Assembly (NCBI GenBank): GCA_964402695.1
Contig: CAYODK010000001.1
Location: 12,702 to 76,701 of the forward strand
Origin: an uncultured Verrucomicrobiota bacterium
GTDB taxonomy: Bacteria > Verrucomicrobiota > Kiritimatiellia > PWTM01
Length of the DNA stretch: 64,000 bases
Direction: 5' to 3'
Part shown: positions 31,959 through 58,071 of the stretch, piece by piece
Position numbering within the stretch: position 1 is the first letter of the stretch
Layout of the letters: each line of letters starts with the position of its first letter
Made by a program: the position numbers and the translations under genes
The notes under the pieces: model-generated
The model's input: the letters and a program-made list of their open reading frames with translations, nothing else
Told to the model about the DNA's origin: nothing
Database searches by the model: none

Positions 31959-31970
31959 TAAGAAGAGGAC

Positions 31971-32922
31971 GACAACCGAATGGGGACAACCGAATGATGA
32001 GGGAAGTAGGACAAGGTTGGTAGCGCTGGAAAGAGGCTGTTGACGATGTCGATTCAGTGTTCCATTCCGGTGCGAGACTTGAGCAAGGGCGAGTTCGACG
32101 AACGCGACGCCGTCGTGATGCGCTGCGCCTATGCATCCCAGAACTGCCTGGGAAGGCTCTGCGACGAGCAGGTCTATGAGAATGATCTGGCATTGCGCCT
32201 GAAAGCCGAGGGATTCTGCGAGATTCACACGCAGGTGCCGGTTGTCGTCACTCATGAGGGGTTTGAGAAGACCTATCGATTGGACCTCCTGGCCGACGAT
32301 GCGCTGTACGAGTTGAAGACGGTTGCGGCGCTGACCGCCGAGCATGACGCCCAATCGTTGCACTACGCCATGCTGCTGGGAGTCCGGCATTCGAAACTGC
32401 TGAACTTCAGGACGCCAAGGGTGCAGGGGCGGTTGAGATTCAACGCGATCGATCCAAGCCAAAGGATGAGGGTTACGTGGAGTACTTCGAAGTGGTGTCC
32501 GCTGTCCGATTCATGCGTTCACCTTAAAGAGTGGATTCAGGCCATGGTCTCCGACTGGGGCGCCTTTCTGGACTCCCACCTGTACGAAGAGGCGTTGATC
32601 CACTTCTGCGGCGGCGAGTTGAACTGCGTTCGCCGCGTGCCGGTGCTCCGAGAAGGTCGGCAACTGGGCACGCAGAGGGTCCAATGTCATGACGATGGCC
32701 TCTGCTTCCTCGTGACCGCCATGACGGCCGATGTTGAGCGATTTGCGGGGCATCTCCAACGCCTGCTTGCATTGACCCGGCAGCGCGGAATGCAATGGAT
32801 GAATCTCGATCGCGAACGTGTCCATCTGAACACCATTCGTCCCGAGGAAGTACATAGGACTTCATCATGAACAGGCATCATCCCTCCCTTCGGCACTATT
32901 CGGTTGTCCCCATTCGGTTGTC
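31971..32922. mobile_element. ~0.95-kb low-GC cassette with perfect 25-bp terminal inverted repeats carrying one PD-(D/E)XK-family gene
   Basis: Left TIR gacaaccgaatggggacaaccgaat at 31971-31995. Right TIR attcggttgtccccattcggttgtc at ~32898-32922 is its exact reverse complement. The interior is visibly AT-richer than its flanks. Confidence 0.7.
32040..32870 (+). CDS. GxxExxY / PDDEXK_3 (PD-(D/E)XK nuclease-like) family protein with extra C-terminal domain
   Basis: EQVYENDLALRLKAEGF...VPVVVTHEGFEKTYRLDLLADDALYELKTVAALTAEHDAQSLHYAMLLGVRHSKLLNF matches the GxxExxY family pattern; TTG start per the track, first ATG at 32046. Confidence 0.65.
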   Translation: MTMSIQCSIPVRDLSKGEFDERDAVVMRCAYASQNCLGRLCDEQVYENDLALRLKAEGFCEIHTQVPVVVTHEGFEKTYRLDLLADDALYELKTVAALTAEHDAQSLHYAMLLGVRHSKLLNFRTPRVQGRLRFNAIDPSQRMRVTWSTSKWCPLSDSCVHLKEWIQAMVSDWGAFLDSHLYEEALIHFCGGELNCVRRVPVLREGRQLGTQRVQCHDDGLCFLVTAMTADVERFAGHLQRLLALTRQRGMQWMNLDRERVHLNTIRPEEVHRTSS

Positions 32923-34120: not shown

Positions 34121-34143
34121 GGGCAAGGATCGTGTGCGCCAGA

Positions 34144-34264
34144 GCCGCGACCAGCGGTCGCGGCTGCAGAAGAGGAACGCGAGGCATGTCCGACTGTAGC
34201 CGCGACGGGTCGTCGCGGCGACCTTGCCTCTACGAACGTACTGCCGCGACCAGCGGTCGCGGCC
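34144..34264. promoter_or_regulatory. three tandem copies of palindrome GCCGCGACC-N3-GGTCGCGGC upstream of FAD oxidoreductase 3
   Basis: Copies at 34144-34164, 34199-34219 and 34244-34264; the same palindrome is also at 23727, 23782 and 27227. Confidence 0.6.
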
Positions 34265-34277
34265 ACAGGGGACTCCG

Positions 34278-35663
34278 ATGACAACCATGAACCGGCGGAA
34301 TGCGATCAAGGGTCTGGCGCTCGGCGCCGCGGCGGGGTGGGGGGCATCGGCACGCGCGGAGGCCGCGCCGTCACCGCGGGCGGCGAAGCCGGCGGCCTGG
34401 CCGGCCGTTGACGTGCTCGTGTGCGGCGGGGGCCCGGCGGGCATCGCGGCGGCGCTGATGGCGGCGCGCGCGGGACGGAAGACGCTGCTGGTCGAGCGCT
34501 ACGGCCGGCTCGGCGGCATGGCGGTCCAGGCGATGGTCGGCCCGCTGATGGGCAGTGTGCGCAGCGCGCGTGTCGACGAGATCCTCGCGGCTCTGGGCGG
34601 GCGCAACGTCGACTACGAGTTCATCGACCTGACGTACACGGAGCTCCTCGAGAAGGCCGGCTGCCGGATCCTGCTCCACGCGTGGGCCGCGGAGCCGCTG
34701 ATGGACGGCCGGCGCGTCGCCGGGGCGCGGCTGGTCACCAAGCAGGGGCCGATCGACGTGTCCGCGCGCGTGACGGTCGATGCGACCGGAGACGGCGACC
34801 TCGCGGCCGGCGCCGGCGCCGCGTTCGACCAGGGCCGCGACAAGGGGCCGACCTGGGAGGCCGACGGCCTCGTCCAGCCGATGACCATCATGTTCCGCGT
34901 CTCCGGCGTGAAGCACGAGGAGACGATGGAGGCCAACCGCGGCCGGAAGGCGTTCCGGACCGCCGACGGCCGCACGTGGAACCAGTTCTGCAAGGACTCG
35001 TGCCTCGCCGGCGACCTCCCGCCGAACGTCGGGATGCTGCGGACCTACCTGTCGCACCGGCCCGACCAGCGCGTGATCAACGCGACGCAGATCAACGGAG
35101 TCGACGGCACGAAGGTCGAGGACCTCACGCGGGCCGAGCTGGAGGCCCGCCGCCAGGTGCGGCGGGTGATGGACTTCCTCCGCAAGCACGCGCCGGGCTT
35201 CAAGGACGCCTACGTCAGCGGCATGCCCGCCGTCATCGGCGTGCGCGAGACGCGGCGCATCCGCGGCGTCGAGACGTTGACGGTCGACGACCTCTTCGCG
35301 GGCCGCACGTGGCCGACCGCGGTCGTGCGCGGGGCGTCGTTCCCGGTCGACATCCACAATCCGACCGGGATGGGGCAGGCGCAGGGCGTCTCCGCGGCCC
35401 ATCCGCTCGGCAAGGACCCGAAGGTGAAGCCCTACGAGATCCCGTACGGCTGCCTCGTCCCGCGCGAGACCGACGGCCTGCTCGTCGCCGGCCGCTGCAT
35501 CAGCGGCACGCACGAGGCGATGGCCTCCTTCCGCGTCCAGGTCATCGCGATGGGCATCGGCCTCGCCGCCGGAACCGCGGCGGCGCAGGCGGTCGCGCAG
35601 GGCGTCGAACCGCGCGCGGTCGACGTGGAGGCGGTGCGGAAGGTCGTGTTGGCGGAGGCGTAG
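34278..35663 (+). CDS. Tat-signal FAD-dependent oxidoreductase (PF12831-like), paralogue 3
   Basis: MTTMNRRNAIKGLALGAAAGWGASARA twin-Arg signal; DVLVCGGGPAGIAAALMAA Rossmann motif. Confidence 0.7.
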   Translation: MTTMNRRNAIKGLALGAAAGWGASARAEAAPSPRAAKPAAWPAVDVLVCGGGPAGIAAALMAARAGRKTLLVERYGRLGGMAVQAMVGPLMGSVRSARVDEILAALGGRNVDYEFIDLTYTELLEKAGCRILLHAWAAEPLMDGRRVAGARLVTKQGPIDVSARVTVDATGDGDLAAGAGAAFDQGRDKGPTWEADGLVQPMTIMFRVSGVKHEETMEANRGRKAFRTADGRTWNQFCKDSCLAGDLPPNVGMLRTYLSHRPDQRVINATQINGVDGTKVEDLTRAELEARRQVRRVMDFLRKHAPGFKDAYVSGMPAVIGVRETRRIRGVETLTVDDLFAGRTWPTAVVRGASFPVDIHNPTGMGQAQGVSAAHPLGKDPKVKPYEIPYGCLVPRETDGLLVAGRCISGTHEAMASFRVQVIAMGIGLAAGTAAAQAVAQGVEPRAVDVEAVRKVVLAEA

Positions 35664-35750
35664 GCGCATGAGGACGGCGGCCCCCCCTATCCCATACGAT
35701 CCGGTTCGGACCCGGGATGGGACGGGGTGTGAATGCGAGTCGTCCAGCAT

Positions 35751-35940
35751 GGAAGTGAGAAACTCCAAACTCCAAGGAAGTGGGAAGTGCAACGAAGGAG
35801 AAGGAGGGAAGTCCGGACGAGTCGCAGGTGGGGAACCGGTTCGTCGGAGTCCGGTGCTTTTCGAAACGGCCTTGGATTTCCACCCGGGGGCTCTCCGACT
35901 TCCCTTCTTCTTCCTTGGAGTTTGGAGTTTCCCTACTTCC
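35751..35940. repeat. second full MITE-like element (inverted arms GGAAGTGAGAAACTCCAAACTCCAAGGAAG)
   Basis: Left arm at 35751-35812; right arm gacttcccttcttcttccttggagtttggagtttccctacttcc at 35897-35940 is its reverse complement. Confidence 0.7.
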
Positions 35941-36013
35941 GGCTCGACGTCGACGGGTTCCCGTGAGAGACGATCAACCGCATTGCTCCGGCCCCGCTTC
36001 ACGAGGCGGGGTG

Positions 36014-36060
36014 TCCAACCCTTGGAAGCCTGCGGCTTCCGGTCTTCCAAACCTTGGAAG
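36014..36060. promoter_or_regulatory. tandem CTTCCAA-N3-TTGGAAG palindromes 32 bp apart, immediately upstream of the 36070 gene
   Basis: gtccaacccttggaag (36014-36028) and cttccaaaccttggaag (36044-36060). Confidence 0.5.
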
Positions 36061-36069
36061 TTCCAGGTC

Positions 36070-37041
36070 GTGGCGCTTCTGCTGGCAGCCGCGCTGCCAC
36101 TGCGGGCTGCGGAGTGGGCGCAGACGAACGCGCCGCTCTGGGGGTTGGAAAAGGGTCTGCGGTTCGCCCTTCATCCCGCCGGGTTCGGTCCCGGCGCCGG
36201 CGGGCCGCGCGGACTCATCCGCATCGGCGCCCCGGTGCTTCCCGGCGGCGGGCATGCGCTGGTGAACTTCATCGCTGTCGAACCGGTGGTGAAGGGGACG
36301 CGCGGGTACAGCGAGATGGAACGGAGTCCGCTCGATGCGCAGCCCGGGCTGCGGATGATCTCCGGCGAACCAGCGCGATCGACGCCGTCGCCCGGCGTGG
36401 AACAGGTCGACGTGCCGGTGGAGGTCGAGCCGTTCGCCAACGGTGCGAGGGTCCGCCTGGTTCTCACGCAGCGCAGCGACGCGCCGGACGAACTCCGCTG
36501 CGCCGTGTTCACCCGTCCCGGCAGCGCGCCGGTGGACGACGTCATCCTCACCGCCACGATGGGCAACATGGTCCGCACGCGCCGGCTGTGGCTGGCCGAC
36601 GGGGTCCTCCACTGCCGCGCTCTCTACCCGGATTTCCGCGGCAACCGGTTCGCCCCGCACCGCGAGTTCCCGCTGGCCCGGATCGCCCGGACCGCGGAGG
36701 GCGACGCGATCGCGGCGGTCACCGGCGACGAGCCGGATCCGGCCACGGTCGTGCCGTTCCCGGACCGGCCGTTCTGGCACTATGCCGGCGTGCCGGTCAC
36801 CCAGTACTGGAAGGTGCCGGAGGCCGGGGTCGCGCCCGACCTGCGGGTCCTCGTCAACGCGCGCGCCGAATACTGGATGAGCCGGCATCCGATCCCCGGC
36901 GGCCCTGCATTCGAGAATTTCGAGATGCGGACGCGGTTCCGCGAGGGGCAGGTCTTCATCTTCGGGGTGACGAAGCGCGCGCCGGTCGATCTCATGCCGG
37001 GTGGCCGCGCGGCGAACGTGGAGTGGAGGGACGATCCATGA
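36070..37041 (+). CDS. secreted hypothetical protein
   Basis: In-frame GTG start (VALLLAAALPLRAAEW signal peptide) inside track ORF 35668..37041; no recognisable domain; stop overlaps the next gene's ATG. Confidence 0.45.
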   Translation: MALLLAAALPLRAAEWAQTNAPLWGLEKGLRFALHPAGFGPGAGGPRGLIRIGAPVLPGGGHALVNFIAVEPVVKGTRGYSEMERSPLDAQPGLRMISGEPARSTPSPGVEQVDVPVEVEPFANGARVRLVLTQRSDAPDELRCAVFTRPGSAPVDDVILTATMGNMVRTRRLWLADGVLHCRALYPDFRGNRFAPHREFPLARIARTAEGDAIAAVTGDEPDPATVVPFPDRPFWHYAGVPVTQYWKVPEAGVAPDLRVLVNARAEYWMSRHPIPGGPAFENFEMRTRFREGQVFIFGVTKRAPVDLMPGGRAANVEWRDDP

Positions 37042-38348
37042 ACCGGAGGGGTCTTCGGACAGCTGCGCTGTCGGCGCTTGCGGCGGCTTGTGCCGGGGCG
37101 TCCGCGCAGGCGGTGCGGCCGCTGGCGCAGGAGCACGTGGTCGTCTGCGAGTCGCCCTCGCCGGCGGACATCCATTGCTACACGCCCGGCATCGTGCGCC
37201 TCGACGGCGGGCGGCTGGTGGCGACGATGGATTTCGGCGGCAAGGGGATGAAGAAGACGGAGCCGCACGGGCGGGTGTTCACGTCCGACGACCACGGCGC
37301 CACATGGACCCTGCGGACGAAGTTCCCGTTCGTCCACGCGCGGCCGTTTGCGGCGGGGCCGTCCGTCTACGTGCTGGGGCACTCGGGCGATCTCGACGTG
37401 ATCCGGTCGGACGACGGTGGCACGACGTGGGGGCCGGTCGCGAGCCTGACGAAGGGGCAGTCGTGGCACCAGTCCGCCTGCAACGTCCATTACGCCCGCG
37501 GCTGCGTCTACCTCGTGATGGAGCGCCGCGTGTCCGCGAACATCCGGAGCTGGCCGGTCGGCGAACTGGCGCCGGTGCTGATGCGCGGCCGGGTCGACGC
37601 GGACCTCACGCAGGCGACGAACTGGACCTTCGCGTCCGAGCTGTCGTTCGCCGGGACGATCCCGAACCTTGCGACCGAGCCGGCGATCGACTTCTTCGGC
37701 GTGCCGTTCTACCCGGCGGGCTATCCGAGCGGCTGCGTTCCCGCCCCCGGCCGCGGCAGCGCGCCGCTCGGCTGGCTCGAGACGAACGTCATCCAGATCG
37801 AGGATCCCGACCACGTCTGGTTCGACCCCTCGGGGAGGACCTTCCACCTCTGGGCGCGCGCCCATACCGGCGGCACCGGCTATGCGGCGGTCGCGAAGGT
37901 TGTCGAGAACGAGGACGGCACGATGACCACGATGCTGGAACGCGTGCCGTCAGGCCGCCGTGCGCTCTTCCTGCCGTGCCCCGGCGGGCAGATGCGGTTC
38001 CATGTCCTGTACGACAGGCCGACCAGGCTCTACTGGCTGCTCAGCTCGCAGGCGACGGACTCGATGACGCGCGCCGACCGGTTGCCGGAAGACCGCTACA
38101 ACCTGCCGAACAACGAACGGCACCGCCTGCAGCTCCATTTCTCCCGGAACATGGTCGACTGGTGCTTCGCCGGGCTCGTGGCGGTGGGCGGCACGCCGCG
38201 CGAGGCCAGGCACTACGCGAGCCTGGCGGTCGACGGCGACGATCTCGTGGTGCTCTCGCGAAGCGGCGACGCACGCGCGAAGTCGGCGCACGACGGCAAC
38301 CTGATCACCTTCCACCGCGTGAAGAACTTCCGTGGACTGGTCTACTGA
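37038..38348 (+). CDS. BNR-repeat sialidase-like glycoside hydrolase
   Basis: MNRRGLRTAALSALAAACAGASAQA signal; Asp-boxes SDDHGATWT and SDDGGTTWG; this is the in-frame C-terminal half of track ORF 36054..38348. Confidence 0.7.
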   Translation: MNRRGLRTAALSALAAACAGASAQAVRPLAQEHVVVCESPSPADIHCYTPGIVRLDGGRLVATMDFGGKGMKKTEPHGRVFTSDDHGATWTLRTKFPFVHARPFAAGPSVYVLGHSGDLDVIRSDDGGTTWGPVASLTKGQSWHQSACNVHYARGCVYLVMERRVSANIRSWPVGELAPVLMRGRVDADLTQATNWTFASELSFAGTIPNLATEPAIDFFGVPFYPAGYPSGCVPAPGRGSAPLGWLETNVIQIEDPDHVWFDPSGRTFHLWARAHTGGTGYAAVAKVVENEDGTMTTMLERVPSGRRALFLPCPGGQMRFHVLYDRPTRLYWLLSSQATDSMTRADRLPEDRYNLPNNERHRLQLHFSRNMVDWCFAGLVAVGGTPREARHYASLAVDGDDLVVLSRSGDARAKSAHDGNLITFHRVKNFRGLVY

Positions 38349-38460
38349 GGCGCCCCGAATGAATACCACGGATGGCACGGATGAAGGCCGGCGCGGAGTC
38401 GTGGGGAGCGGTTTCGCTGCGCCGGCTACAGAGCGGCGCAATGAGTCCGGCGCGGGAACG

Positions 38461-39948
38461 ATGCGCTGTCCGATCCGTGTGATCCGTGGAATCCGTAGCG
38501 CAGCCTGCCGCTCGGCGGCAGTCGCCCTGGCCCTTGCGGCTGCGGCCGCGGCGGCGGAGCGGCCGGGTATCGTCCTCATCCTGGCCGACGACCTCGCGTG
38601 GAGCGACCCCGCGTGCTACGGCAGCCGCTGGCACGACACGCCGAACCTGGACCGGCTGGCGCGGGAGGGCATGCGCTTCACCCAGGCCTACGCGGCCGCG
38701 CCGATCTGCTCGGCCTCGCGCGCGGCGATCCTCACGGGCCGCTCGCCGGCGCGGCTCGGCTTCGAGTTCGTCACGAAGGCCGGGCCGGGGCGACAGGACC
38801 TCGGGCAGCCGCTTCTCCCGCCGCCGTTCACGCTGGACCTCCCGCTGGAGGAGGTGACGCTCGGCGAGATGCTCGCCGGAACGGGATACGCGACCGGCTT
38901 CTTCGGCAAGTGGCACGTCAGCCGCCACCATGGCGGCTACCTCGGATGGTCCCCGACGCACGGCCCCCTCCGGCAGGGGTTCGCCGCGGGCGACGCGGAC
39001 TTCGGCTGTCATCCGTACGGCTACCGGAAGGGCGCGGACGCGGACCGCGCCGAGGTGCCGGACGGCGCCTTCCCGCCGGACGCGCTCACGGACCGGGCGG
39101 TCGCGTTCCTGCGCGGCGCGAAGAGACCCTTCTTCCTGTACCTGTCGCACTACTTCGTCCACGACCCGGTCCACACGCGCTGCCGCTGGCTGGCGGACAC
39201 GGTCCGGCGGCGGCTGCCGGCCGGCGCGTCCGCGGCGCGTGCGGACTACGGCGCGATGGTGGAGACGCTCGACCACCTCGTCGGCCGCGTGATGGACGCG
39301 CTGGACCGGGCGGGCCTTGCGAAGGACACGCTCGTCGTGTTCACGTCCGACAACGGCGGCCACCCGGTCTACGCCGCAAACGGACCGCTGCGCGGCAGCA
39401 AGTGGAACCTCTACGAGGGCGGCATCCGGGTCCCGCTGATCGTCCGGTGGCCCGGCCGCGTCGCCGCGGGCTCGACGAACGACTCGGTCGTCACCGGGTG
39501 CGACTTCTTCGCCACGTTCGCGGAGCTGGCCGGGGCGGCGGCGGACGGCATCGCGCGCGACGGGACGAGCCTCGCGCCGCTGCTGCGCGACGCCGCGGCG
39601 CGGCTGCCGGAGCGGCCGCGGGTCTGGCACTTCCCGTACTACCATCCTGAGACGGGGTTCGACGCGGCGCCGGCCCGCATCGGCATCGATGATTTCGTCA
39701 CCAGCCGGACGCGGCCGCATTCAGCGGTGCGTCTCGGCAACTGGAAGCTGGTGCATTTCCACGAGAACGACCGCGACGAGCTGTACAACCTGCGTGCCGA
39801 TCCGTCGGAGCAGGAAGACCTCGCGCAGGCGGAGCCCGTTCGCCGTCGCGAGCTGCGGGCCCTTCTGGACGAGCAGCTCAAGGGAGCGTCCGCCCGCCTG
39901 CCCGAACCGAACCCGGACGCCCCGTCCACCCAGCGGAGGAAGCCATGA
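38461..39948 (+). CDS. sulfatase
   Basis: MRCPIRVIRGIRSAACRSAAVALALAAAAAAA signal; ILADDLAWSD; CSASRAAILTG (C-x-A-x-R FGly motif); FFGKWH; FTSDNGG. Confidence 0.8.
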   Translation: MRCPIRVIRGIRSAACRSAAVALALAAAAAAAERPGIVLILADDLAWSDPACYGSRWHDTPNLDRLAREGMRFTQAYAAAPICSASRAAILTGRSPARLGFEFVTKAGPGRQDLGQPLLPPPFTLDLPLEEVTLGEMLAGTGYATGFFGKWHVSRHHGGYLGWSPTHGPLRQGFAAGDADFGCHPYGYRKGADADRAEVPDGAFPPDALTDRAVAFLRGAKRPFFLYLSHYFVHDPVHTRCRWLADTVRRRLPAGASAARADYGAMVETLDHLVGRVMDALDRAGLAKDTLVVFTSDNGGHPVYAANGPLRGSKWNLYEGGIRVPLIVRWPGRVAAGSTNDSVVTGCDFFATFAELAGAAADGIARDGTSLAPLLRDAAARLPERPRVWHFPYYHPETGFDAAPARIGIDDFVTSRTRPHSAVRLGNWKLVHFHENDRDELYNLRADPSEQEDLAQAEPVRRRELRALLDEQLKGASARLPEPNPDAPSTQRRKP

Positions 39949-41447
39949 TCCCGAATCCCACGGTTCACCGATCCCGACGGCGCGCCCGCCGTGCCGGTCC
40001 TGCGGCCGGCCTGGCCCTGCTCGCCTGGGTCACCGCGGCGTCCGCGGCGGGGCCGGATCGTCCGAACGTGCTGTTCCTTGCGGCGGACGACCTCCGCAAC
40101 GACCTGGGGTGCTACGGGCATCCGATGGTGAGGACGCCGAACCTCGATGCGCTCGCCGCGCGCGGCGTGCTGTTCGAGCGCGCCTACTGCCAGCAGGCGC
40201 TGTGCAATCCGTCGCGCGCCTCGCTGATGACCGGGCGCCGGCCGGACACGCTGCGGCTGTGGAACCTGACGAAGCACTTCCGCGACGAGATCCCGGACGT
40301 CGTGACGATGCCACAGCATTTCCGCGCCGCCGGCTACTTCGCGCAGAACGTCGGCAAGATCTTCCACAACTTCCGCCAGGAGATTCAGGGCGACCCGGCC
40401 TCGTGGAACGTGCCGGCCGTGATGCACTACGGCAATCACAACGACGACCGGCCGGCCGTGGACGGCGAGCCGCCGCCCAACCTGGCGAAGGATCCGAAAT
40501 GCCAGTGCTACGACGTGCCCGACGAGGCCTACTACGATGGGCGCGTCGCGAAGCTGGCGATCGAGGCGTTGCGCGAGCGCGCCGCGAAGCCGGAGCCGTT
40601 CTTCCTCGCGGTCGGCTTCTGGAAGCCCCACTCGCCGTTCAACGCGCCGAAGCGCTACTGGGACCTCTACCGCCGCGAGGACGTCCCGATGCCCGCCAAC
40701 GCGGAGTGGCCGGCGGACGCCCCGCGCATCGCGTGGCACAACAGCCGCGAGATCCTCGGCGAGCCGGCGCGGACGCTGACGCCGGAGGCCGTCCGCGAGA
40801 TCCGCCACGGCTATCTGGCGAACATCAGCTTCCTCGACGCGCAGGTCGGCAGGGTGCTCGGCGAACTGGACCGGCTCGGGCTGGCGGACCGGACCATCGT
40901 GGTGTTCTGGTCCGACCACGGCTACCACCTCGGCGAGCAGACGCTCTGGGCCAAGACGTCCAACTTCGAGCTCGACGCGCGCGTGCCGCTGATCGTCGCG
41001 GCGCCGGGCCTCCGCGGCGGGGTGCGGACGCGGGCGCTCGCGGAACTGCTCGACCTCTATCCGACGCTGGCCGAGCTGGCAGGGTTGCCGCGGCCCGCGG
41101 GGGTGGATGGCGTGAGCCTCGTTCCGGTCCTGAAGGACCCGGCGGCGTCGGTCAAGCCGGCGGTGCTGACGCAGCATCCGCGGCCTGCGTATTACAAGGA
41201 GGCGCCGGAGGCGATGGGCTACTCGCTCCGCACCGACCGTCACCGCTACGTCGAGTGGCGCGACGGGACGAACGGCGCGGTCGTTGCGCGCGAGCTGTAC
41301 GACCACCGGGCGGACCCGGCGGAAACCCGCAACGTCGCGGGCGATCCCGCCAACGCGGTGGCGATCGCCGGGGCCGCGGAGTTGTTGAAGACATTCAAGC
41401 CGGTCGCGGGAACGCTCCCGCGGCGGGCGCGAAAGGGCGCGCAATGA
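39945..41447 (+). CDS. sulfatase (iduronate-2-sulfatase-like)
   Basis: ATGA overlap; LFLAADDLRNDLGCYG; CNPSRASLMTG (C-x-P-S-R); WSDHGYHLGE. Confidence 0.85.
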   Translation: MIPNPTVHRSRRRARRAGPAAGLALLAWVTAASAAGPDRPNVLFLAADDLRNDLGCYGHPMVRTPNLDALAARGVLFERAYCQQALCNPSRASLMTGRRPDTLRLWNLTKHFRDEIPDVVTMPQHFRAAGYFAQNVGKIFHNFRQEIQGDPASWNVPAVMHYGNHNDDRPAVDGEPPPNLAKDPKCQCYDVPDEAYYDGRVAKLAIEALRERAAKPEPFFLAVGFWKPHSPFNAPKRYWDLYRREDVPMPANAEWPADAPRIAWHNSREILGEPARTLTPEAVREIRHGYLANISFLDAQVGRVLGELDRLGLADRTIVVFWSDHGYHLGEQTLWAKTSNFELDARVPLIVAAPGLRGGVRTRALAELLDLYPTLAELAGLPRPAGVDGVSLVPVLKDPAASVKPAVLTQHPRPAYYKEAPEAMGYSLRTDRHRYVEWRDGTNGAVVARELYDHRADPAETRNVAGDPANAVAIAGAAELLKTFKPVAGTLPRRARKGAQ

Positions 41448-42364
41448 AGACACCGCTGGCGGGCATCATCCCGCCGATCGTCACGCCGCTGAAGGACCGC
41501 GACACGCTCGATGCGGAAGGCTTCGAACGCCTCGTCGAGCGCGAGATTGCAGGCAGGGTCCACGGCCTGTTCATCCTCGGCACGACGGGCGAGGGGCCCG
41601 GCCTGGGCTACCGTCTGCGCCGGGAGGTCGTCGACCACGCGTGCCGCCTTGTGAATGGCCGCGTGCCGGTTCTCGTCGGCATCACCGACACGGCGTTCGT
41701 CGAGTCCGTCGCCCTGGCCCGCCACGCCGCCGCCGCCGGGGCGGACGGAGTCGTCGCGGCGCCGCCCTACTACATGCCCGAAGGCCAGCCCGAGCTGGTC
41801 GAGTACCTGCAACACCTCGTGCCGGAGCTGCCGCTTCCGCTGTACCTCTACAACATGCCGATGATGACCAAGGTCAGCTTCGCGCCCGAGACGGTGAAGC
41901 AGGCGATGGATATCGCGGGCATCGCGGGCATCAAGGACAGCTCCGGCGACATGGACTACTTCCGCACCGTCTGCGCGATCGCGAAGGAGCGGCGGCCGGA
42001 GTGGTCGCTGCTGATGGGGTCGGAGATCCTGCTCGCGCCGGCGGTCGCGTGCGGCGCGCACGGGGGCGTCTGCGGCGGGGCCAACGTGGCGCCACGGGTC
42101 TTCGTCGATCTCTACGAGGCGGCGGTCTCGGGCGATGCGGACCGGATCAAGGCCGCGGAGGCGCGGGCCGAGGCGCTGTCGCGGATCTACCGCGTCGGCA
42201 GCCACCCGTCGACCGGCATCAAGGGCATCAAGTGCGCGCTCTCGCTGCTCGGCGTGTGCGACGACTTCATGGCCGAGCCATTCCGCCGCTTCCGGGCCCC
42301 GGAGCGGGAGAAGGTGGCGCGCATCCTGGCGGAACTGGGGCTTGGTGCCGCCGGGCACGTGTAA
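41444..42364 (+). CDS. DHDPS-family aldolase, probable N-acetylneuraminate lyase
   Basis: ATGA overlap; GLFILGTTGEGPGL (GTTGE motif); Schiff-base Lys context GIKDSSGD; embedded among sialidases. Confidence 0.75.
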   Translation: MKTPLAGIIPPIVTPLKDRDTLDAEGFERLVEREIAGRVHGLFILGTTGEGPGLGYRLRREVVDHACRLVNGRVPVLVGITDTAFVESVALARHAAAAGADGVVAAPPYYMPEGQPELVEYLQHLVPELPLPLYLYNMPMMTKVSFAPETVKQAMDIAGIAGIKDSSGDMDYFRTVCAIAKERRPEWSLLMGSEILLAPAVACGAHGGVCGGANVAPRVFVDLYEAAVSGDADRIKAAEARAEALSRIYRVGSHPSTGIKGIKCALSLLGVCDDFMAEPFRRFRAPEREKVARILAELGLGAAGHV

Positions 42365-42403
42365 CATTAGCCGATGCGACCGCATCCGATAATGTTACAC
42401 CTG
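42364..42403. other. 40-nt nested palindrome (11-bp perfect arms GTGTAACATTA/TAATGTTACAC around a palindromic spacer)
   Basis: gtgtaacattagccgatgcgaccgcatccgataatgttacac directly after the lyase stop; AT-rich for this genome. Confidence 0.6.
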
Positions 42404-42405
42404 AG

Positions 42406-44196
42406 ATGCGGGAGGATCAGGATGTGAAGACGTGGTCAGGGTTGATCGGATCGGCGGCCCTGCTGCTGGCGGCAAGCACGGCGTCTGCACAGACCGTTGC
42501 GTCGCGGTGGAATGTCGCGGCGGCCGGGGCCGTGGGCGACGGGCAGGCGGACGGCACCGCGATCTTCCAGCGCCTGCTGGACGAGGCCGGGAAGGCGGGC
42601 GGCGGAGTCGTCGAGGTCCCGGCGGGGCGGTTCCGGATCGCGGGCCACCTTGCGATCCCGGCGAACGTGACGTTGCAGGGCATCTACCGCACGGCGCCGC
42701 TGACGCCGACGGCGCGGCACGGCGGGGGTGAAGTCGGCGGCTCGGTCCTGCTCGCCTTCGAGGGCCGCGGCTCGACGAACGGCGCGCCGTTCATCGACCT
42801 GGCGGGGCACAACGCGGTGGTCGCAGGGCTGGTGGTCCGCTATCCCGAGTGGAGGCAGACCGACGTGCCGCCGGTGCCGTATCCGCCGTGCGTGGCGTCG
42901 GACGACACGGAGAACACCGGCGTCCTCGAATGCCTGCTGCTGAATCCGTACGAGGCGATCCGGCTTGTGCGGGCGCACCGGCATCTCGTTCGCAATGTGA
43001 CGGGCTATCCGTCGTGGCGCGGCCTCTACGTCGACATGTGCGGCGACATCGGCCGCGTGGAGAACGTCCACTTCTGGCCGTTCGGCGTCCACTACAAGCC
43101 GGACGATCCCTACTGCCGGTGGGTGAACACGCAAGGCACCGCCTTCGAGTTCGCGCGGACGGACTGGGAGTACGTGCTCAACACGTTCTGCTTCGGCTAC
43201 GGCGCGGGCTACAGGTTTTCCGAATCAAAGGACGGCTGCGCCAACGGCAACTTCGTCGGGCTCGGCGCGGATTCGTGCGAGCGGGCGGTGGTGGTCGAGC
43301 AGGCGCAGCCGCCGGGGCTGCTGATCTCCAACGGCGAGTTCGTCGGGCGGTGGAGCGGCACCGAGTCGGTGTGCGTCGACATCGGTCCGGACGTCGGCGG
43401 GAAGGTCAGCCTCGTCAACTGCGCGTTCTGGGGGCCGATCGACCGGTGCGTGCGGATGCGCAGCACGAACGGCCAGTTCACGGCCAGCGCGTGCCATTTC
43501 GTGAACTGGGACAACCGCGGCGCGGGCTCGGCGGCCGTGCAGATCGACGCAGGCAGGGCGATCGTGCAGGGCTGCACGTTCATGGAGGACGGCCTCCACG
43601 TCGAGGTCGGCCCGGCGGTGGCCTCGGCGATCCTGACGGCGAACCAGGCGGCCGGCGGCTTCCGCGTCGAGAACGCAGCCGGCGCGCGGACGCAGGCGGC
43701 GCTGAACGAGGCGGACCCGGTGCAGTGGACCGACGCGGCGCGGGCGCACTACCGGCTCGCCGTCGGCGTCTCCGGCGACGGGCGCTACCTGCGGGGCTGG
43801 CACGGCGCCGAGCGCGGTCCGCCGCCGTATCGCTGGAGCATGGCGCGGTCACAGTTGGTCCTGCCGGCGCCGGTGGGGAAGGCGTGCACGGTCGAACTGG
43901 GACTTTCCGTGCCGGCGCATGCGGTGGGGCCGGAGTCCGGGTTGTACCTTGGCGACGCGCGGCTTGCGCCGCTGCTCGCCGGCACGAATCTCACGGCGCG
44001 GCTGCCGGCGACGACGGAGGATCGTTACCGGCTTGAGTTGCGCTGCGCCGGGTGGGTGCCGAAGAAGTTGAACCCCGCGTCGCAGGACGACCGCGAACTG
44101 GGCGTGCAACTGCGGTCCATCACGCTGCGCGCGGACGGCGCGGGACCGGCGGTGTTCGATGCGAACACGGGGCGGCCGCAGGAGAATAGCCAATAG
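42406..44196 (+). CDS. right-handed beta-helix (pectate-lyase-fold) glycoside hydrolase
   Basis: Signal peptide, then AAGAVGDGQADGTAIFQRLLDEAGKAGGGVVEVPAGRFRI (Pectate_lyase_3-type N-terminus) and repeated beta-helix rungs; an alternative GTG start at 42424 sits 8 nt after GGAGGA. Confidence 0.65.
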   Translation: MREDQDVKTWSGLIGSAALLLAASTASAQTVASRWNVAAAGAVGDGQADGTAIFQRLLDEAGKAGGGVVEVPAGRFRIAGHLAIPANVTLQGIYRTAPLTPTARHGGGEVGGSVLLAFEGRGSTNGAPFIDLAGHNAVVAGLVVRYPEWRQTDVPPVPYPPCVASDDTENTGVLECLLLNPYEAIRLVRAHRHLVRNVTGYPSWRGLYVDMCGDIGRVENVHFWPFGVHYKPDDPYCRWVNTQGTAFEFARTDWEYVLNTFCFGYGAGYRFSESKDGCANGNFVGLGADSCERAVVVEQAQPPGLLISNGEFVGRWSGTESVCVDIGPDVGGKVSLVNCAFWGPIDRCVRMRSTNGQFTASACHFVNWDNRGAGSAAVQIDAGRAIVQGCTFMEDGLHVEVGPAVASAILTANQAAGGFRVENAAGARTQAALNEADPVQWTDAARAHYRLAVGVSGDGRYLRGWHGAERGPPPYRWSMARSQLVLPAPVGKACTVELGLSVPAHAVGPESGLYLGDARLAPLLAGTNLTARLPATTEDRYRLELRCAGWVPKKLNPASQDDRELGVQLRSITLRADGAGPAVFDANTGRPQENSQ

Positions 44197-44255
44197 CCGA
44201 TCGCCAATAGCCGATGGCCGATTGCCAAGGGCGAAAGGCGGAGCCGGGAGGTCCG

Positions 44256-45323
44256 ATGAAGCGGATTGTTGCGGGGTGTGTGCTGGTGGCGGCGATGGGT
44301 GCCGCGGGGGTGGAGACGGAGAACGTCACCGTCTTCAAGGAGCCGGGGCGCTACGGCGGATGGCCGGCGAACCACGGGATCTGGGGATGGGGGGACGAGA
44401 TCGTCGTCGGGTTCACGGCGGCGTGGTACAAGCCGGCGACGAACGACCACGCGATCGACCGCGCGAAGGCGTCTGAGGTGTGGCAGGCGCGGAGCCTCGA
44501 CGGCGGGCGGACGTGGTCCGTCGAGAAGCCGCCCGAGCTTGCGAAGCCGGCTCGTCCGGCCGACCTCCCGCCGCTGCCCGGCCCGCTCGACTTCACCGCG
44601 CCGGACCAGGCGTTGATGTTCCGTTTCGGCAGCCTGCATGTCGGGCCGTCGTGGCTGTACGTCTCCGGCGACCGCTGCCGCACGTGGCGTGGCCCGTACG
44701 CGTTCCGCGCCGAAGGCATCGACAAGGTCGCCGCGCGCACCGATGTCGTCGTGCTCGGTCCGCGCGAGGCGCTGATGTTCGCCAGCGCCGCGAAGGCGGA
44801 CAACAAGGAGGGGCGCGCCTTCTGCGCGCGCACGGCGGACGGCGGCCTGACATGGAAGCTCGCCGGCCTCATCGGACCGGTTCCCGAGGGCTACACCATC
44901 ATGCCGTCCAGCGCGCGGCTGGCGGACGGCTCGCTCCTGACGACGATCCGTCACGTCGACAAGGGGCGGCCCGCGACAATCGACGCGTATCGCAGCGCCG
45001 ACGGCGGCGCAACGTGGGAATCGCTCGGCGAGGCCGCGCACGACAACGGCGGCAACCCGCCGAGCCTGGTGACGCTGAAGGACGGCCGCCTGTGTGTGAC
45101 CTACGGCTGCCGCCGCAAGCCGTTCGGCATCCGGGCACGGATCAGCGCCGACGGCGGGCGCTCGTGGGGGCCGGAGATCCTGCTGCGCGACGACGGGCTC
45201 ACCGGCGATCTAGGCTATTCGCGGAGCATCGTCCGCCCCGACGGCCGCGTGGTCACCGTCTACTACTTCAACGGCCCCCGCGACGAGGACCGCGCCATCG
45301 AGGCGACGATCTGGACGCCGTGA
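44256..45323 (+). CDS. BNR-repeat sialidase-like protein
   Basis: MKRIVAGCVLVAAMGAAG signal; Asp-boxes SLDGGRTWS, TADGGLTWK, SADGGATWE, SADGGRSWG. Confidence 0.7.
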   Translation: MKRIVAGCVLVAAMGAAGVETENVTVFKEPGRYGGWPANHGIWGWGDEIVVGFTAAWYKPATNDHAIDRAKASEVWQARSLDGGRTWSVEKPPELAKPARPADLPPLPGPLDFTAPDQALMFRFGSLHVGPSWLYVSGDRCRTWRGPYAFRAEGIDKVAARTDVVVLGPREALMFASAAKADNKEGRAFCARTADGGLTWKLAGLIGPVPEGYTIMPSSARLADGSLLTTIRHVDKGRPATIDAYRSADGGATWESLGEAAHDNGGNPPSLVTLKDGRLCVTYGCRRKPFGIRARISADGGRSWGPEILLRDDGLTGDLGYSRSIVRPDGRVVTVYYFNGPRDEDRAIEATIWTP

Positions 45324-45329
45324 TTCCGG

Positions 45330-46403
45330 CTACTGCGCCGCGATTTTGCTGCGGTAGGACTCGACCTCCCAGTTGTCGATGAAGTCGCGGGCGCGGTCGG
45401 CCAGGTAATGGATCCCTCCGAAGGCGGAGGCGAGCTGCTCGACGAGGGCGCCGTCCTGCGCGAACTCCAGCGCCAGCGCCGCGTTCTTCGCGTTCGTGCC
45501 GACGCCCCACACCGCGCCGCCGGCCGCGACGACCTTCGGCGCGTAGCCATGCTTCGCCTTGTACCGGGCGACCGCGTTCGGCGTGGGCGCCGTGCGCAGC
45601 GGGTAGGACTTCGAATAGACGATGTGGTCCGGGCTGATCGGTCCGGCCGGGACGGGGATCGCCCCGCCCGCGGCAACGCCGGCCGCGTCGGGCCCGAGCG
45701 AGGCCTGGAGCTGCGCCGTCATGGCCGCAACGTCCGCGGCGGCCGGCGGCGGGCCCATCTTGAGGATCGTGGATACGCGGGCCTTCCGGTACTCGGCCGC
45801 CAGCGCGGTCATGACGCGGGCGTAGGCGTTGCGCACGCCGGCGGCGGTGTCGGCCGCGACGAAGACGCCGTGGTTCTCGAGGAAGAGCAGCTCCGGCTCG
45901 CGGCCGTCGCGCGCGACGCACGCCTTCAGCGCCTTGCGGACCTCCATGCACAGCGTGTAGCCGGGGTCGACGTAGGGCATCCACAGCGCATCGGGGAACA
46001 GGCGGCGGCACGCGGCCTCGCCGTCACGCCCGCAGGTCATGCCGTTGACGAGGGCGGGGTGGGTGTGGACGACGTAGCGTGCGGCGAACGTGTCGTGCAG
46101 CGGAGCCTCGACGGACGGACGCCCCTTCGAGGCCGGCCGCACGGCGGCGGCCATCATGTCCTTCACCAGCGCCTCTCGCGCGGCGGGGGCGGAGGGAGTC
46201 GGCACGGCGTAGAGGCGGGCCAGCTTCGCGCGGTCCATCGCGACCATCGTCTGCGCCGTCAGCCCGGCCAGCGTCGTGCCGGAGGGCTTCACCCACAGCG
46301 TATCCGCGTTCTTCGCCGACGTGTTCCCGCCGCCGCCCTTCACGTAGTCCGGCGTTCCGAACTCGTGCGACAGCCCGATGATCGTGTCCAACAGCCGCGT
46401 CAT
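45330..46403 (-). CDS. class II aldolase/adducin-family protein
   Basis: Internal start MTRLLDTIIGLSHEFGTPDYVKGGGGNTSAK...LWVKPSGT: class II aldolase N-terminal signature. Confidence 0.65.
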   Translation of the reverse strand: MTRLLDTIIGLSHEFGTPDYVKGGGGNTSAKNADTLWVKPSGTTLAGLTAQTMVAMDRAKLARLYAVPTPSAPAAREALVKDMMAAAVRPASKGRPSVEAPLHDTFAARYVVHTHPALVNGMTCGRDGEAACRRLFPDALWMPYVDPGYTLCMEVRKALKACVARDGREPELLFLENHGVFVAADTAAGVRNAYARVMTALAAEYRKARVSTILKMGPPPAAADVAAMTAQLQASLGPDAAGVAAGGAIPVPAGPISPDHIVYSKSYPLRTAPTPNAVARYKAKHGYAPKVVAAGGAVWGVGTNAKNAALALEFAQDGALVEQLASAFGGIHYLADRARDFIDNWEVESYRSKIAAQ

Positions 46404-46507
46404 GGTGTGCTCCCGTCGTGCCGGCGCCGGATCCTCCGGCGGGCGACGATCCGCACACACTGGCCGAGGCGGGCGGAAAACGCAAACGCGAACAACAACG
46501 CGAACGG

Positions 46508-46921
46508 CTACCAGACGGTCGTCACGTGCGGATACGCGCGGATCAGCCCGTCCGAGGTCACCAGGCGGGCGCCGTAACGGCGGGCCAGGGCCACAATGAT
46601 CCGGTCGGCCGGGTCGCGGTGGAAATCCCCGGGAAGCTGGGTGCTGGCGATGGCGTCGGCCGGACCCACGGGCTCCACATCGAGCCCGGGATAGCCGGAC
46701 GCGCGGCGGTACCACTCGCCGATCTCCATCGGCAGCGACAGCTTGCCCATGGCCACCTTGATGGCGATCTCCCACACGGAAATTGCGGATACCTTCAGTT
46801 CGCCGGCCTTCTCGGCGGCCTCGATGGCCGTCCGGGCGGTCCGGCTGAGACGTGACGGGTCGTGAAGCCACCAGATCCAGGCCTGGGTATCCAGGACCGT
46901 CAAGGCTGCAACTCCTGCCAC
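46508..46921 (-). CDS. vapC: PIN-domain toxin (VapC-like)
   Basis: LTVLDTQAWIWW...VSAISVWEI...LVTSDG: PIN acidic residues are present. Confidence 0.7.
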   Translation of the reverse strand: MAGVAALTVLDTQAWIWWLHDPSRLSRTARTAIEAAEKAGELKVSAISVWEIAIKVAMGKLSLPMEIGEWYRRASGYPGLDVEPVGPADAIASTQLPGDFHRDPADRIIVALARRYGARLVTSDGLIRAYPHVTTVW

Positions 46922-47136
46922 AGGTCGGGCATCGGCCGGTCGAAATCCTCCGTGACGCGGACAGGCAGGCCCCGGAGGGACCGGTTTCCGGGCGCGCCCG
47001 CATCCAAACGGTGGGGGACGATGTCCACCAGTGGAACCCCGCGCCGTCCGATCGACAGGCGCTGCGGGCTCCGGAGCACGCGATCGACGATGGACGGCAG
47101 CGACCGACGGGCCTCGGAGATGTTCAGGATGGTCAT
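46900..47136 (-). CDS. Phd/YefM-type antitoxin
   Basis: 78-aa MTILNISEARRSLPSIVDRVLRS...; overlaps the toxin start by 22 nt; a TGTACA/GTGTACAC palindrome cluster lies in its promoter region (47145-47171). Confidence 0.65.
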   Translation of the reverse strand: MTILNISEARRSLPSIVDRVLRSPQRLSIGRRGVPLVDIVPHRLDAGAPGNRSLRGLPVRVTEDFDRPMPDLWQELQP

Positions 47137-47209
47137 GGGAAACCTTGTGTACACATCATATGTACAACATGAGCTGCCCATGTGCAACTCCGAAAGCGGC
47201 CGGAAAGCG

Positions 47210-47241
47210 AAAACCCCCGCGGGTTGCCCCGCGGGGGTTTT
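47210..47241. terminator. bidirectional rho-independent terminator
   Basis: AAAACCCCCGCGGG-ttgc-CCCGCGGGGGTTTT: a perfect 10-bp GC stem with A and T tails, sitting between the hppA 3' end and the TA promoter. Confidence 0.85.
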
Positions 47242-47261
47242 CTGGAATCCGAGGCCCCGGG

Positions 47262-49337
47262 TTACTTCAGGAGCGGGGTGACGGTCTTGAGCACGGGCGC
47301 GATGACCAGCGCGACGACGCTCATGAGCTTCATCAGGATGTTCAGCGACGGGCCGGCGGTGTCCTTGAAGGGATCGCCCACGGTGTCGCCGACGACCGCC
47401 GCCTTGTGCGCCGCGGAGCCCTTGCCGCCGAGCGCGCCGCCCTCGATGTGCTTCTTGGCGTTGTCCCACGCGCCGCCGGCGTTGGACATGAAGAGCGCCA
47501 TCATGACGCCCGACACGGTCACGCCCGCGAGCAGGCCGCCGAGCATCTCCTTGCCGAAGACGAAGCCGACGAGGACCGGCGTGATGACGCCCAGCAGCGC
47601 CGGGACGGTCATCTTCTTGATCGCCGCCGCGGTCGAGATGTCGACGCAGCGGGCGTAGTCGGCCTTGACGCCTTCCTTGCCTTCCAGCAGGCCCGGGATC
47701 GACTTGAACTGGCGGCGGACCTCCTCAACCATCGCGAAGGCGGCCTGGCCGACCGCGTTCATCGCGAAGGCCGAGAAGAGGAAGGGCATCATCGCGCCGA
47801 CGAGCAGGCCGGCGCAGACGTTCGGGTCCATGACGTCGATGCGCTCGAGGCCGACGGTCTGTCCGAACGCCGCGAAGAGCGCGAGCGCCGTCAGCGCGGC
47901 GGAGCCGATCGCGAAGCCCTTGCCGATCGCGGCGGTGGTGTTGCCGCAGGCGTCCAGCTTGTCCGTGCGCTGGCGGACTTCCTTCTCCAGGTGCGACATC
48001 TCGGCGAGGCCGCCGGCGTTGTCGGCGATCGGGCCGTAGGCGTCGACTGCGAGCTGGATTCCCGTCGTCGCGAGCATGCCGAGGCCGGCGATCGCGATGC
48101 CGAAGAGGCCGGCGGTCTTGTAGGCCACCACGAGGGCGGCCGCGAGGACGAGCGTCGCGATGCCCGTCGAGAGCATGCCGTTGCCGAGGCCGGCGATGAT
48201 GTTCGTCGCCGCGCCGGTGGTCGAGGCGTCCGCGATGCGGTTCGACGGGCCCTTGCCCTCGGCCGTGTAGTACTCGGCCAGCAGGCCGATCACGACGCCG
48301 GAGGCGAGGCCGGCGATCGTCGCCCAGAACACGCCCATCGCCTTGAAGACCGTTCCACCCATCGTGTACTCGGCCGGGCAGAACTTGACGATGACAAAGT
48401 AGGAGACGACGGCGGTCGCGACGGCGGCCGCAATGGTGCCCATGTTGAGCGCGGTCTGCGGGTTGCCGCCCTCCTTCGTCTTCACGAAGAAGGTGCCCGA
48501 GATCGAGAAGATGATGCCGACCGCCGAGAGGACGATCGGGAGGAAGACCAGCTTCAGGTGCTGGGCGTTGTCCGCCATCGTCGCCGTGGCCGCGAGGACC
48601 ATGGCGCTGACGATCGCGCCGACGTAGGACTCAAAGAGGTCCGCGCCCATGCCCGCGACGTCGCCGACGTTGTCGCCGACGTTGTCCGCGATGACGGCGG
48701 GGTTGCGGGGGTCATCCTCCGGGATGCCCGCCTCGACCTTGCCGACGAGATCCGCTCCGACGTCCGCGGCCTTCGTATAGATGCCGCCGCCGACGCGGGC
48801 GAAGAGGGCGATCGAGCTGGCGCCCATCGAGAAGCCCGTCACGATCGGGAGGACCGTCGAGGCCACCGTCGCGGCTTCGCTGCCGAACATCTTGAGGAAG
48901 ACGACCGTCAGGGTCGACAGGCCGAGCAGGCCGAGGCCGACCACGCACATGCCCATGACCGAGCCGCCCGCGAAGGCGACTTCCAGCGCCTGGGGCAGGC
49001 CCTTGCGCGCCGCGTTGGTCGTCCGCATGTTGGCCGCCGTCGCCACGCGCATGCCGAAGTAGCCCGACAGCGCCGAGCAGAACGCGCCGACCACGAAGGC
49101 GACCGCCACCAGCCGGACCGAGCCCTTGTTGATGCCGGCCAGGATCGCGGCCACGACGATGATGAACACGGAGAGGACCTTGTACTCGCGGGCGAGGAAT
49201 GCCATCGCGCCCTCGCGAACGGCCGCGCCGATCTCGCGCATCCGCTCGGTGCCCGGATCCAGCTTGTTGATCCAGGACGTCTTCCAGAAGGCATAGATCA
49301 GCGCCAATACGCCGCACCCGATGCCTGCATAGATCAT
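47262..49337 (-). CDS. hppA: membrane-bound proton/sodium-translocating pyrophosphatase
   Basis: 692 aa and about 16 TM helices; GGG(I)[16 protein letters not shown] and DNVGDNVGD signatures; this is the C-terminal part of track ORF 47262..50957. Confidence 0.9.
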
Positions 49338-49639
49338 CTGCTCTGCGTTCACGTGTGCCTTTCCCTTCTTCTGGTCTTCTGGTGATCTCGGACCGGCGGG
49401 CTCCCTGCCTCCCCGTCGCCGAAAAAAAGTGCGCATACTGTAGATCAAACGGTCACCCGGAGTCAAGGGCGAATCCGCCGCGCAGAAGTGGATGGAAGCT
49501 GCTGGAGAATAGACAGATACATTATGAGCTGGTCTCGGGCCGGGGCCGGGCGCGGGGCGGGCGCCCCGGCCCGTCCACCCTGCGGCCCTCGGTACGCCTT
49601 CCGTGCGCCCTCTGTACGCCGGTGTGCCGGCGGGTGTAC

Positions 49640-49687
49640 CTTCCAACCCTTGGAAGCCCGGCGGGTGGATCTTCCAAGCCTTGGACG
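49640..49687. promoter_or_regulatory. tandem CTTCCAA-N3-TTGGAAG palindromes 31 bp apart upstream of the DUF5060 hydrolase gene
   Basis: cttccaacccttggaag (49640-49656) and cttccaagccttggacg (49671-49687). Confidence 0.5.
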
Positions 49688-58070: not shown

Positions 58071-58071
58071 C

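Follow-up and report, generated by a model that had tools for sequence, protein, structure and literature searches.

Repetitive extragenic palindromic elements (REPs) are palindromes of 20-40 bp that carry a GTAG or CGTC tag, prefer unidirectional and convergent locations, frequently contain G-T pairs in their stems and are linked to REP-associated tyrosine transposases (RAYTs; PMC3733652). The sites of the Lrp family are palindromes of 13-15 bp that form clusters, lie two to four helical turns apart on one face of the DNA and are bound cooperatively with wrapping of the DNA (PMC2995911, PMC3597646); FL11, for example, binds a 13-bp palindrome (PMC2995911). Here, we describe a palindrome with the core TTCCAA-N3-TTGGAA, present as two pairs and one single copy in a 64,000-nt stretch of DNA (hereafter, the window; contig CAYODK010000001.1) from an uncultured bacterium of the Kiritimatiellia. 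The original prediction, made from this DNA alone, took the palindromes for sites of cooperative binding by a dimeric regulator, or for an unusual promoter element, upstream of two secreted glycan-locus genes. Our analysis demonstrates that they belong to a repeat family, which is defined by its phasing, its taxonomic range and a mostly intergenic location in any gene orientation. It is more likely that tandem arrays of these sites are docking sites for a putative general DNA-binding protein than that they are switches for the two glycan genes.

One genome per species was scanned for two copies of TCCAA-N3-TTGGA separated by a gap of 5-35 nt, which recovered at least 118 stretches with the paired motif from about 54 assemblies (the loci numbered L below). 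Among the matches listed, 20 assemblies are labeled Tichowtungia, Pontiella or with a name beginning in Kiritimatiell-, most of the others are labeled Lentisphaerae, Verrucomicrobia or 'Spartobacteria', and 5 bear unrelated labels; Tichowtungia and Pontiella represent two classes of the phylum Kiritimatiellota. The 375 sites among these matches share the consensus (T)TTTCCAA-T(G/C)A-TTGGAAA(A). Beyond the positions fixed by the pattern, T is found at -1 in 345/375 sites and A at +13 in 351/375, and a T-S-A center (S, G or C) is favored; because of these flank and center preferences, we regard the site as a 17-bp dyad. The core is conserved over a range of 45-75% GC, and its AT-rich sequence is retained in genomes of 70-75% GC. 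No description of the TTCCAA element was found in the literature, whether by the motif sequence itself or in work on Kiritimatiellota palindromes or promoter motifs and on REPs in Verrucomicrobia. An Rfam search of the window and 14 array-rich loci at gathering thresholds gave no match at the arrays and returned only tRNA, a cobalamin riboswitch and a borderline abiF.

The distance between neighboring sites is quantized. When center distances of 18-48 bp were allowed, the at least 118 loci yielded 153 spacings of 31-32 bp (77 at 31 bp and 76 at 32 bp), 13 of 21-22 bp (2 and 11) and 10 of 42-43 bp (8 and 2), corresponding to 3, 2 and 4 turns of about 10.5 bp, and every other spacing within this range occurred in 0-4 cases. 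Arrays comprise 2-7 sites among the matches listed, and different turn numbers are mixed within one array, as in L038 (22-31-31-30-22) and L026 (31-42-31-42-42-42). The motif search and spacing analysis proposed with the original prediction extend to other genomes what had been noticed in the window, namely a near-equal spacing of about three helical turns in both pairs, which by our measurement amounts to 32 bp (pair 1) and 31 bp (pair 2). An identical pattern applied to viral contigs gave a broad spacing distribution, except for about a dozen contigs that resemble Kiritimatiellota DNA. Moreover, the two-fold symmetry of the site includes the central triplet (TSA), whose bases cannot be paired in an RNA hairpin; the first and third center bases are complementary in about half of the sites. 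At the RNA level, individual sites can form 7-bp hairpins or pair with each other, and the broken pairs on the sense strand, a small sample of 8 G-U versus 9 A-C, show no G-U bias.

Arrays were also seen in contigs with other labels. The viral-classed contig IMGVR_UViG_3300035698_006241 (L191/L168) and about 10 others carry several TTCCAA arrays with 31-32 bp spacing at 51-66% GC; these contigs may be prophages or misassigned Kiritimatiellota host DNA. In low-GC metagenome-assembled genomes (MAGs) labeled Prevotellaceae or unclassified, GTTCCAA-N3-TTGGAAC forms tandem arrays with a period of 21-22 bp (L041, 3494-3552; L049, 3292-3372; L051, 334-411). Either these MAGs are mislabeled rumen Kiritimatiellota, or the phylum is not alone in having a motif of this kind.

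Within the window, CTTCCAANNNTTGGAAG is matched 5 times if no more than 3 mismatches are allowed, against a mean of 0.65 in shuffled sequences, and 0/100 shuffles reach 5. All five CTTCCAA-N3-TTGGAAG sites were thus recovered at the positions originally reported, and the strict core CCAA-N3-TTGG is confined, window-wide, to the same five. In this genome of about 70% GC, the AT-rich cores are conspicuous and the motif takes the form CTTCCAA-NCC-TTGGAAG. None of the five sites is overlapped by Pfam-supported coding sequence.

The location of the arrays relative to genes was determined with a rough gene caller. Of 40 arrays with confident neighbors on both sides, 28 are flanked by unidirectional, 8 by convergent and 4 by divergent genes; the corresponding background values are 67%, 17% and 16%, so that this small sample shows no clear depletion of divergent locations. 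Four of the five convergent cases checked by Pfam are solid (Wzy_C/MurJ, MntP/beta-CASP RNase, UxaE/FAD oxidoreductase and Icd/PATR protein). These four arrays demonstrate an arbitrary orientation relative to genes, the very observation that had been named with the original prediction as one that would refute it. Many arrays begin 1-10 nt past a stop codon and fill the short gap between co-directional genes. Six-site arrays in L038 and L099 stand between a stop codon and a hairpin with a T-run, that is, in the position of a 3' untranslated region (UTR), and in L105 one site forms part of a GC-rich stem that runs into Ts. Others occupy divergent promoter regions (pair 2 of the window, L126 and L020) or lie upstream of separate canonical promoters (L020 and L046). 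The neighbors elsewhere are unrelated and often housekeeping genes, including purM, a kpsF-like isomerase gene, lysA, icd, murJ, mntP, ybeY and phoH, and clustering of 203 array-flanking proteins, encoded on 8-kb fragments of MAGs, revealed no recurrent family. Given these diverse neighbors and the convergent and 3' UTR locations, the motif is not the promoter or operator signature of a regulon. For a motif found phylum-wide in such company, the role of an operator dedicated to the two glycan genes of the window finds no support.

Comparison with syntenic relatives separates the sites from their surroundings. In close relatives, with identities of 82-88% (amino acids) or 86-94% (nucleotides), both window pairs are kept at the same positions. 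In these orthologous pairs, only about 2/72 core positions differ (central triplet excluded), compared with about 37% of linker positions and about 12% of coding DNA. The linker of pair 1 has strongly diverged in sequence in L119 and L122 and is conserved in length, and one extra base in the linker of pair 2 in L211 gives 32 bp, so that the spacing toggles between 31 and 32 bp among relatives. A window-specific insertion accounts for a segment of about 306 bp in the gap that separates pair 1 from the upstream gene.

Taken together, we tentatively favor, with a confidence a little short of an even chance, the view that the sites constitute a dispersed repeat family and that their palindromes are bound by a dimeric protein, which oligomerizes along one face of the DNA, in a geometry like that of Lrp/AsnC or NrdR. 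Recognition of double-stranded DNA by interacting symmetric dimers is favored because of the whole-turn spacing, the symmetry at the center, the absence of a G-U excess, the divergent locations and the conservation of the core. In this respect, the cooperative binding of a dimer proposed earlier is supported by the geometry, that is, by whole-turn spacing and dyad symmetry to the center, and its assignment to a regulator of secreted glycan genes is not. Each palindrome would be bound by a dimer of a conserved, putatively helix-turn-helix-type protein, and neighboring dimers would touch, which may give rise to a cooperative and possibly DNA-wrapping nucleoprotein array on non-coding DNA. The role of such an array would be general, as an architectural element, insulator, roadblock or local repressor, rather than that of a one-regulon switch. 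In the window, the arrays would cover the 5' edges of the secreted-protein gene at 36070 and of the DUF5060 gene as well as the -35 region of a putative promoter of ychF. A more far-reaching proposal, which we consider rather unlikely at present, is that the arrays punctuate the genome: a conserved putative protein would oligomerize on tens to hundreds of phased arrays, insulating transcription units or organizing the nucleoid, at sites that spread in a repeat-like manner. In bacteria, these wrapped or filament-like complexes would correspond to insulator or chromatin-boundary elements.

Several observations weigh against an oligomerizing binder. The TCCAA/TTGGA core was fixed by the search pattern, and its invariance across genomes is therefore partly a matter of construction. 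A tblastn search of about 1 Mb of related loci with the Lrp sequence of E. coli gave no significant match, and no regulator family recurs beside the arrays, the small genes downstream of arrays including isolated GntR-, Fur- and IclR-like members. Arrays located between a stop codon and an intrinsic terminator are, by their position, transcribed. Some copies lie within coding sequence, at places that tolerate them: one pair in the linker of a Pkinase-FGE-sulfatase protein (L080, 4098-4143) and one at the junction between a twin-arginine translocation (TAT) signal peptide and a mature sulfatase (L016, 1405-1451). Presence varies between orthologous positions: L124 (75% identity) retains one decayed site, and L125 and L126 (64% identity) have no pair there, L126 carrying arrays in other gaps. 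The density of additional arrays ranges more than 10-fold between MAGs, from 0 to about 16 per 100 kb. In MAG AM-2014_bin-1020, linkers of different loci are identical at 12.3/17 positions on average, compared with 11.1 +/- 0.16 in a column-shuffled null, and the fixed 31-32 bp spacing could in part be the length of a duplicated unit. Shared linkers, density range, variable presence and in-gene copies look more like a spreading repeat than like selected operators.

Further features of the family concern its amplification. Tandem duplication is visible in the linkers, which alternate in L018 and belong to near-identical units in L032, and a 32-bp unit composed of TTCCAATSATTGGAA and GTTTGCGCGGCGGTCAT recurs in AM-2014_bin-1020. 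Loci that were not selected for the motif contain from 0 arrays in 22 kb (L209) to about 1 per 7 kb (L126), and the 64-kb window has two pairs plus the single site. In L028 (6495-7200), a 3-site and a 2-site array bracket a truncated open reading frame (ORF; 6626-7057, minus strand) that by eye resembles an IS5-type transposase, and the flank GGTCAT-TTCCAAT is common to 4 arrays of this locus.

The same data can be read as those of a REP-like RNA or single-stranded DNA element, a reading that we hold to be unlikely, if far from negligible. Hairpins transcribed in 3' UTRs and between cistrons would stabilize or punctuate mRNA, a dedicated, RAYT-like enzyme would spread them, and the spacing would be the unit length. 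The arrays that follow closely on stop codons in gaps between co-directional genes, those preceding a hairpin and T-run (L038 and L099) and the site within a stem before Ts (L105) are consistent with this, as are the common linkers, the tandem amplification, the lineage-variable copy number, the 7-bp RNA hairpins and the in-gene copies, which REPs show as well (PMC3733652). However, the sites carry no GTAG or CGTC tag, while genuine GTAG REPs occur in the window. The lack of a sense-strand G-U excess, the symmetry in loop positions that cannot pair, and the arrays in divergent promoter regions argue for recognition as DNA duplex instead. Moreover, spacing variants are confined to whole turns that are mixed within single arrays, and the core is conserved throughout the phylum, whereas REPs are species- or genus-specific. 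Tandem duplication (L018 and L032) and the wide variation in density would likewise be expected of a neutral or selfish minisatellite, in which a 31-32 bp unit is amplified by slippage or recombination and tolerated, with no host function and no dedicated binder; the decay in L124 and the absence at the orthologous position in L125 and L126 also fit. We judge this improbable, as the AT-rich core is held against strong GC pressure in about 54 assemblies (among the matches listed), the cores of orthologous pairs are far better conserved than the linkers, and the spacings are whole turns only, whereas both length and sequence would be expected to drift in a neutral repeat.

The readings that start from the two genes fare worse. 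An operator through which a dimeric regulator acts on secreted glycan-degradation genes would be in keeping with the position of both pairs directly at the 5' ends of such genes, which close relatives share, with the overlap between the ychF site and a putative -35 region, and with the presence of a GntR/FCD regulator gene in the locus. We now regard this as very unlikely, in view of the unrelated, often housekeeping neighbors in other genomes, the verified convergent locations and the absence of the pair upstream of the more distant orthologue in L126 despite arrays elsewhere in that locus. GntR operators usually carry a GT...AC signature, and the TTCCAA motif is without it. The gap of 16-17 nt from TTGGAA to the next TTCCAA equals the length of a sigma-70 spacer, and no canonical promoter was found upstream of the three window genes, which would suit a promoter element with TTGGAA as -35 and the next site as -10, or a target of an alternative sigma factor. 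This is the least credible of the explanations. The would-be -10 (TTCCAA or TCCAAT) is devoid of the invariant A at position 2, the lineage uses canonical TTGAC-N17/18-TAnnnT promoters without the motif (e.g., at hppA), several arrays have a separate canonical promoter downstream of them, and spacings of 22 and 42 bp as well as convergent locations do not fit. Sigma-70 scans of the three window regions found only the hppA promoter, in which the sites are not involved, and thus gave no support to the unusual promoter element considered originally.

Two other candidates were set aside. No terminator-like site overlaps the window sites, no U-tract follows them, and on either strand they are preceded by T-runs and followed by A-runs, so an intrinsic terminator was rejected. 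An IHF-like core, CAA-N4-TTG, was ruled out because the spacing here is CAA-N3-TTG.

The features of the window are collected in the table below.

Table. Palindromic sites, neighboring genes and other repeats in the window (mismatches are counted against CTTCCAANNNTTGGAAG)
Feature	Position	Mismatches	Remarks
Single site GTTCCAAGGGTTGGACC	2868-2884	3	ends 32 nt 5' of the ychF ATG (2917)
TATACT hexamer	2892-2897		8 nt 3' of the single site
Pair 1, distal site TGTCCAACCCTTGGAAG	36012-36028	2	contains in-frame TTG 36022
Pair 1, linker	36029-36043		15 bp between the 17-mers, giving 32-bp spacing
Pair 1, proximal site CTTCCAAACCTTGGAAG	36044-36060	0	ends 9 nt 5' of GTG 36070
Pair 2, distal site CTTCCAACCCTTGGAAG	49640-49656	0	divergent region of hppA (-) and the DUF5060-family gene (+)
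Pair 2, linker	49657-49670		gives 31-bp spacing
Pair 2, proximal site CTTCCAAGCCTTGGACG	49671-49687	1	ends 31 nt 5' of ATG 49719
FAD-dependent oxidoreductase gene	34224-35663		PF12831; flanks pair 1
Conserved secreted hypothetical protein gene	36070-37041		flanks pair 1
hppA, H+/Na+-pyrophosphatase gene	47262-49337		minus strand; PF03030, E = 4e-270
hppA promoter TTGACT-N18-TACAGT	49466-49437		minus strand; followed by a T7 run
GntR/FCD regulator gene	19870-20649		
Sulfatase gene	12368-13960		orthologue of the L016 sulfatase gene
PD-(D/E)XK nuclease gene	32040-32870		PF13366; 59% GC
Inverted repeats of tandem GACAACCGAATG units	31962-32010, 32883-32931		49 nt each; bracket the nuclease gene
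GTAG-tagged REP hairpins GTAGCCGCGACC-N-GGTCGCGGC	23727-23850, 27223-27249, 34141-34266		clusters; alternating orientation
Long imperfect hairpins	25350-25511, 35741-35949		about 160-210 bp
Half copy of the long hairpin	2784-2853		
Near-perfect hairpins GGGGCAGACA-N4-TGTCTGCCCC	30110-30169, 30902-30977		
Intergenic short tandem repeats	14050-14087, 58029-58072		GTGTTCG heptads upstream of a sulfatase gene; CCCTCG(T/C) units

The gene at the single site was identified as ychF by PF06071. The ORF of the secreted protein downstream of pair 1 has two possible starts, GTG 36070 and the in-frame TTG 36022, and the equivalent of the latter is the start codon chosen by gene callers in the orthologue L119. 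TTG 36022 could be the real start, in which case site 2 of the pair encodes part of the n-region of the signal peptide; the TTG being in frame is not significant in itself, because the 32-bp spacing automatically leaves the frame open across site 2. The DUF5060-family gene downstream of pair 2 has a GGAGG Shine-Dalgarno sequence. The plus-strand ORF in front of pair 2 (47031-49385, 784 aa) is spurious, being the antisense of hppA, which puts pair 2 between divergent genes and about 300 nt upstream of hppA. The hppA product is 100% identical to a 691-aa database protein, 99% identical to a protein of a 'Lentisphaerae bacterium' (NCBI label) and 76-83% identical to proteins of Kiritimatiellia or Kiritimatiellae, which assigns the organism to Kiritimatiellota. 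A promoter comparable to that of hppA is present in 4 relatives (L207-L210). In addition to the GntR/FCD regulator, the surrounding locus codes for an SSF transporter, BNR proteins, FAD oxidoreductases and sulfatases; the window orthologue of the L016 sulfatase is without the palindrome pair.

Open frames across the sites call for care. Across the coding-region pairs of L016 and L080, the open frame reads S-N/K-x-W-K. In ORF finders, the TTG of TTGGAA starts spurious ORFs in which the next site is read as SNDWK (e.g., L034 at 844, L047 at 2872 and L096 at 2781), and in these GC-rich genomes the longest open frame across arrays did not discriminate them from random positions. The asymmetric linker has the same direction as transcription in 2 cases and the opposite one in 4, too few cases to show a preference.

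The window contains other repeats as well. The GTAG REPs (GTAGCCGCGAC...GGTCGCGGC) have 12 matches, compared with 0.14 expected, and form a family separate from the TTCCAA palindromes. The arms of the long hairpins are purine-rich and consist of tandem heptads, GAGAAACTCCAAACTCCAAGGAAGT being paired with its own reverse complement; no exact match to the long hairpin was found among the at least 118 related loci. Of its three copies, two stand just upstream of TTCCAA palindromes, and the copy at pair 1 lies within the insertion of about 306 bp, absent from L119 and L122, which gives it the look of a miniature inverted-repeat transposable element (MITE). The near-perfect hairpins have 7 matches versus 0 expected, all inside a long BNR/FG-GAP ORF; the alignment to L119 breaks at their first cluster, which may reflect insertion of the repeats within the gene. 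The nuclease gene is found in the same place in L119.

If a conserved oligomerizing protein does bind the arrays, this phylum of glycan degraders, ecologically important and little studied, would possess a new DNA-protein system that extends over the genome, and a site so sharp and abundant would make the binder directly findable. Even if the arrays are mere repeats, they mislead ORF callers through false TTG starts, they probably break assemblies, and they provide a taxonomic signature for Kiritimatiellota contigs labeled Lentisphaerae, Spartobacteria or Verrucomicrobia. The case also carries a caution: conserved palindromes in front of two genes are readily misread as a local operator when one window is viewed alone.

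Several known systems share part of these properties. Like REPs and the bacterial interspersed mosaic elements (BIMEs), the TTCCAA sites are short, many-copy, mostly intergenic palindromes that are single, paired or clustered with fixed spacing, often stand near stop codons, occasionally enter genes and vary in copy number between lineages. In contrast to REPs, which are imperfect and 20-40 bp long, the TTCCAA palindrome is nearly perfect and measures 15-17 bp. The arrays are untagged, the flanks of the 375 sites being T/A runs, and show neither a G-T excess (8 versus 9) nor, in these small samples, a clear divergent depletion; their core is phylum-conserved and their spacing is quantized in helical turns. 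MIRU repeats (mycobacterial interspersed repetitive units) are also tandem units that fill gaps in operons, and they are not palindromic.

Among protein-bound sites, those of Lrp/AsnC proteins such as FL11 and Ss-LrpB are comparable in that TTCCAA-TSA-TTGGAA has a 5-3-5 core and forms arrays of 2-7 sites with centers 2, 3 or 4 turns apart. However, Lrp sites are degenerate, few and restricted to control regions, whereas TTCCAA sites are sharp, number tens to hundreds per genome and also occur between convergent genes. The F plasmid sopC locus is built of 43-bp tandem units with a whole-turn period, each with a palindrome bound by a dimer, as envisaged for the arrays; unlike them, it is a single plasmid locus, bound by the ParB-type protein SopB. 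Tandem NrdR boxes, which lie upstream of ribonucleotide reductase genes, resemble the TTCCAA arrays in that an oligomeric repressor binds two 16-bp palindromes whose centers are separated by about 31-32 bp. NrdR boxes differ from the arrays in sequence and are restricted to nrd operons, where they form no dispersed family, whereas the TTCCAA element combines such a geometry with the dispersal of a repeat.

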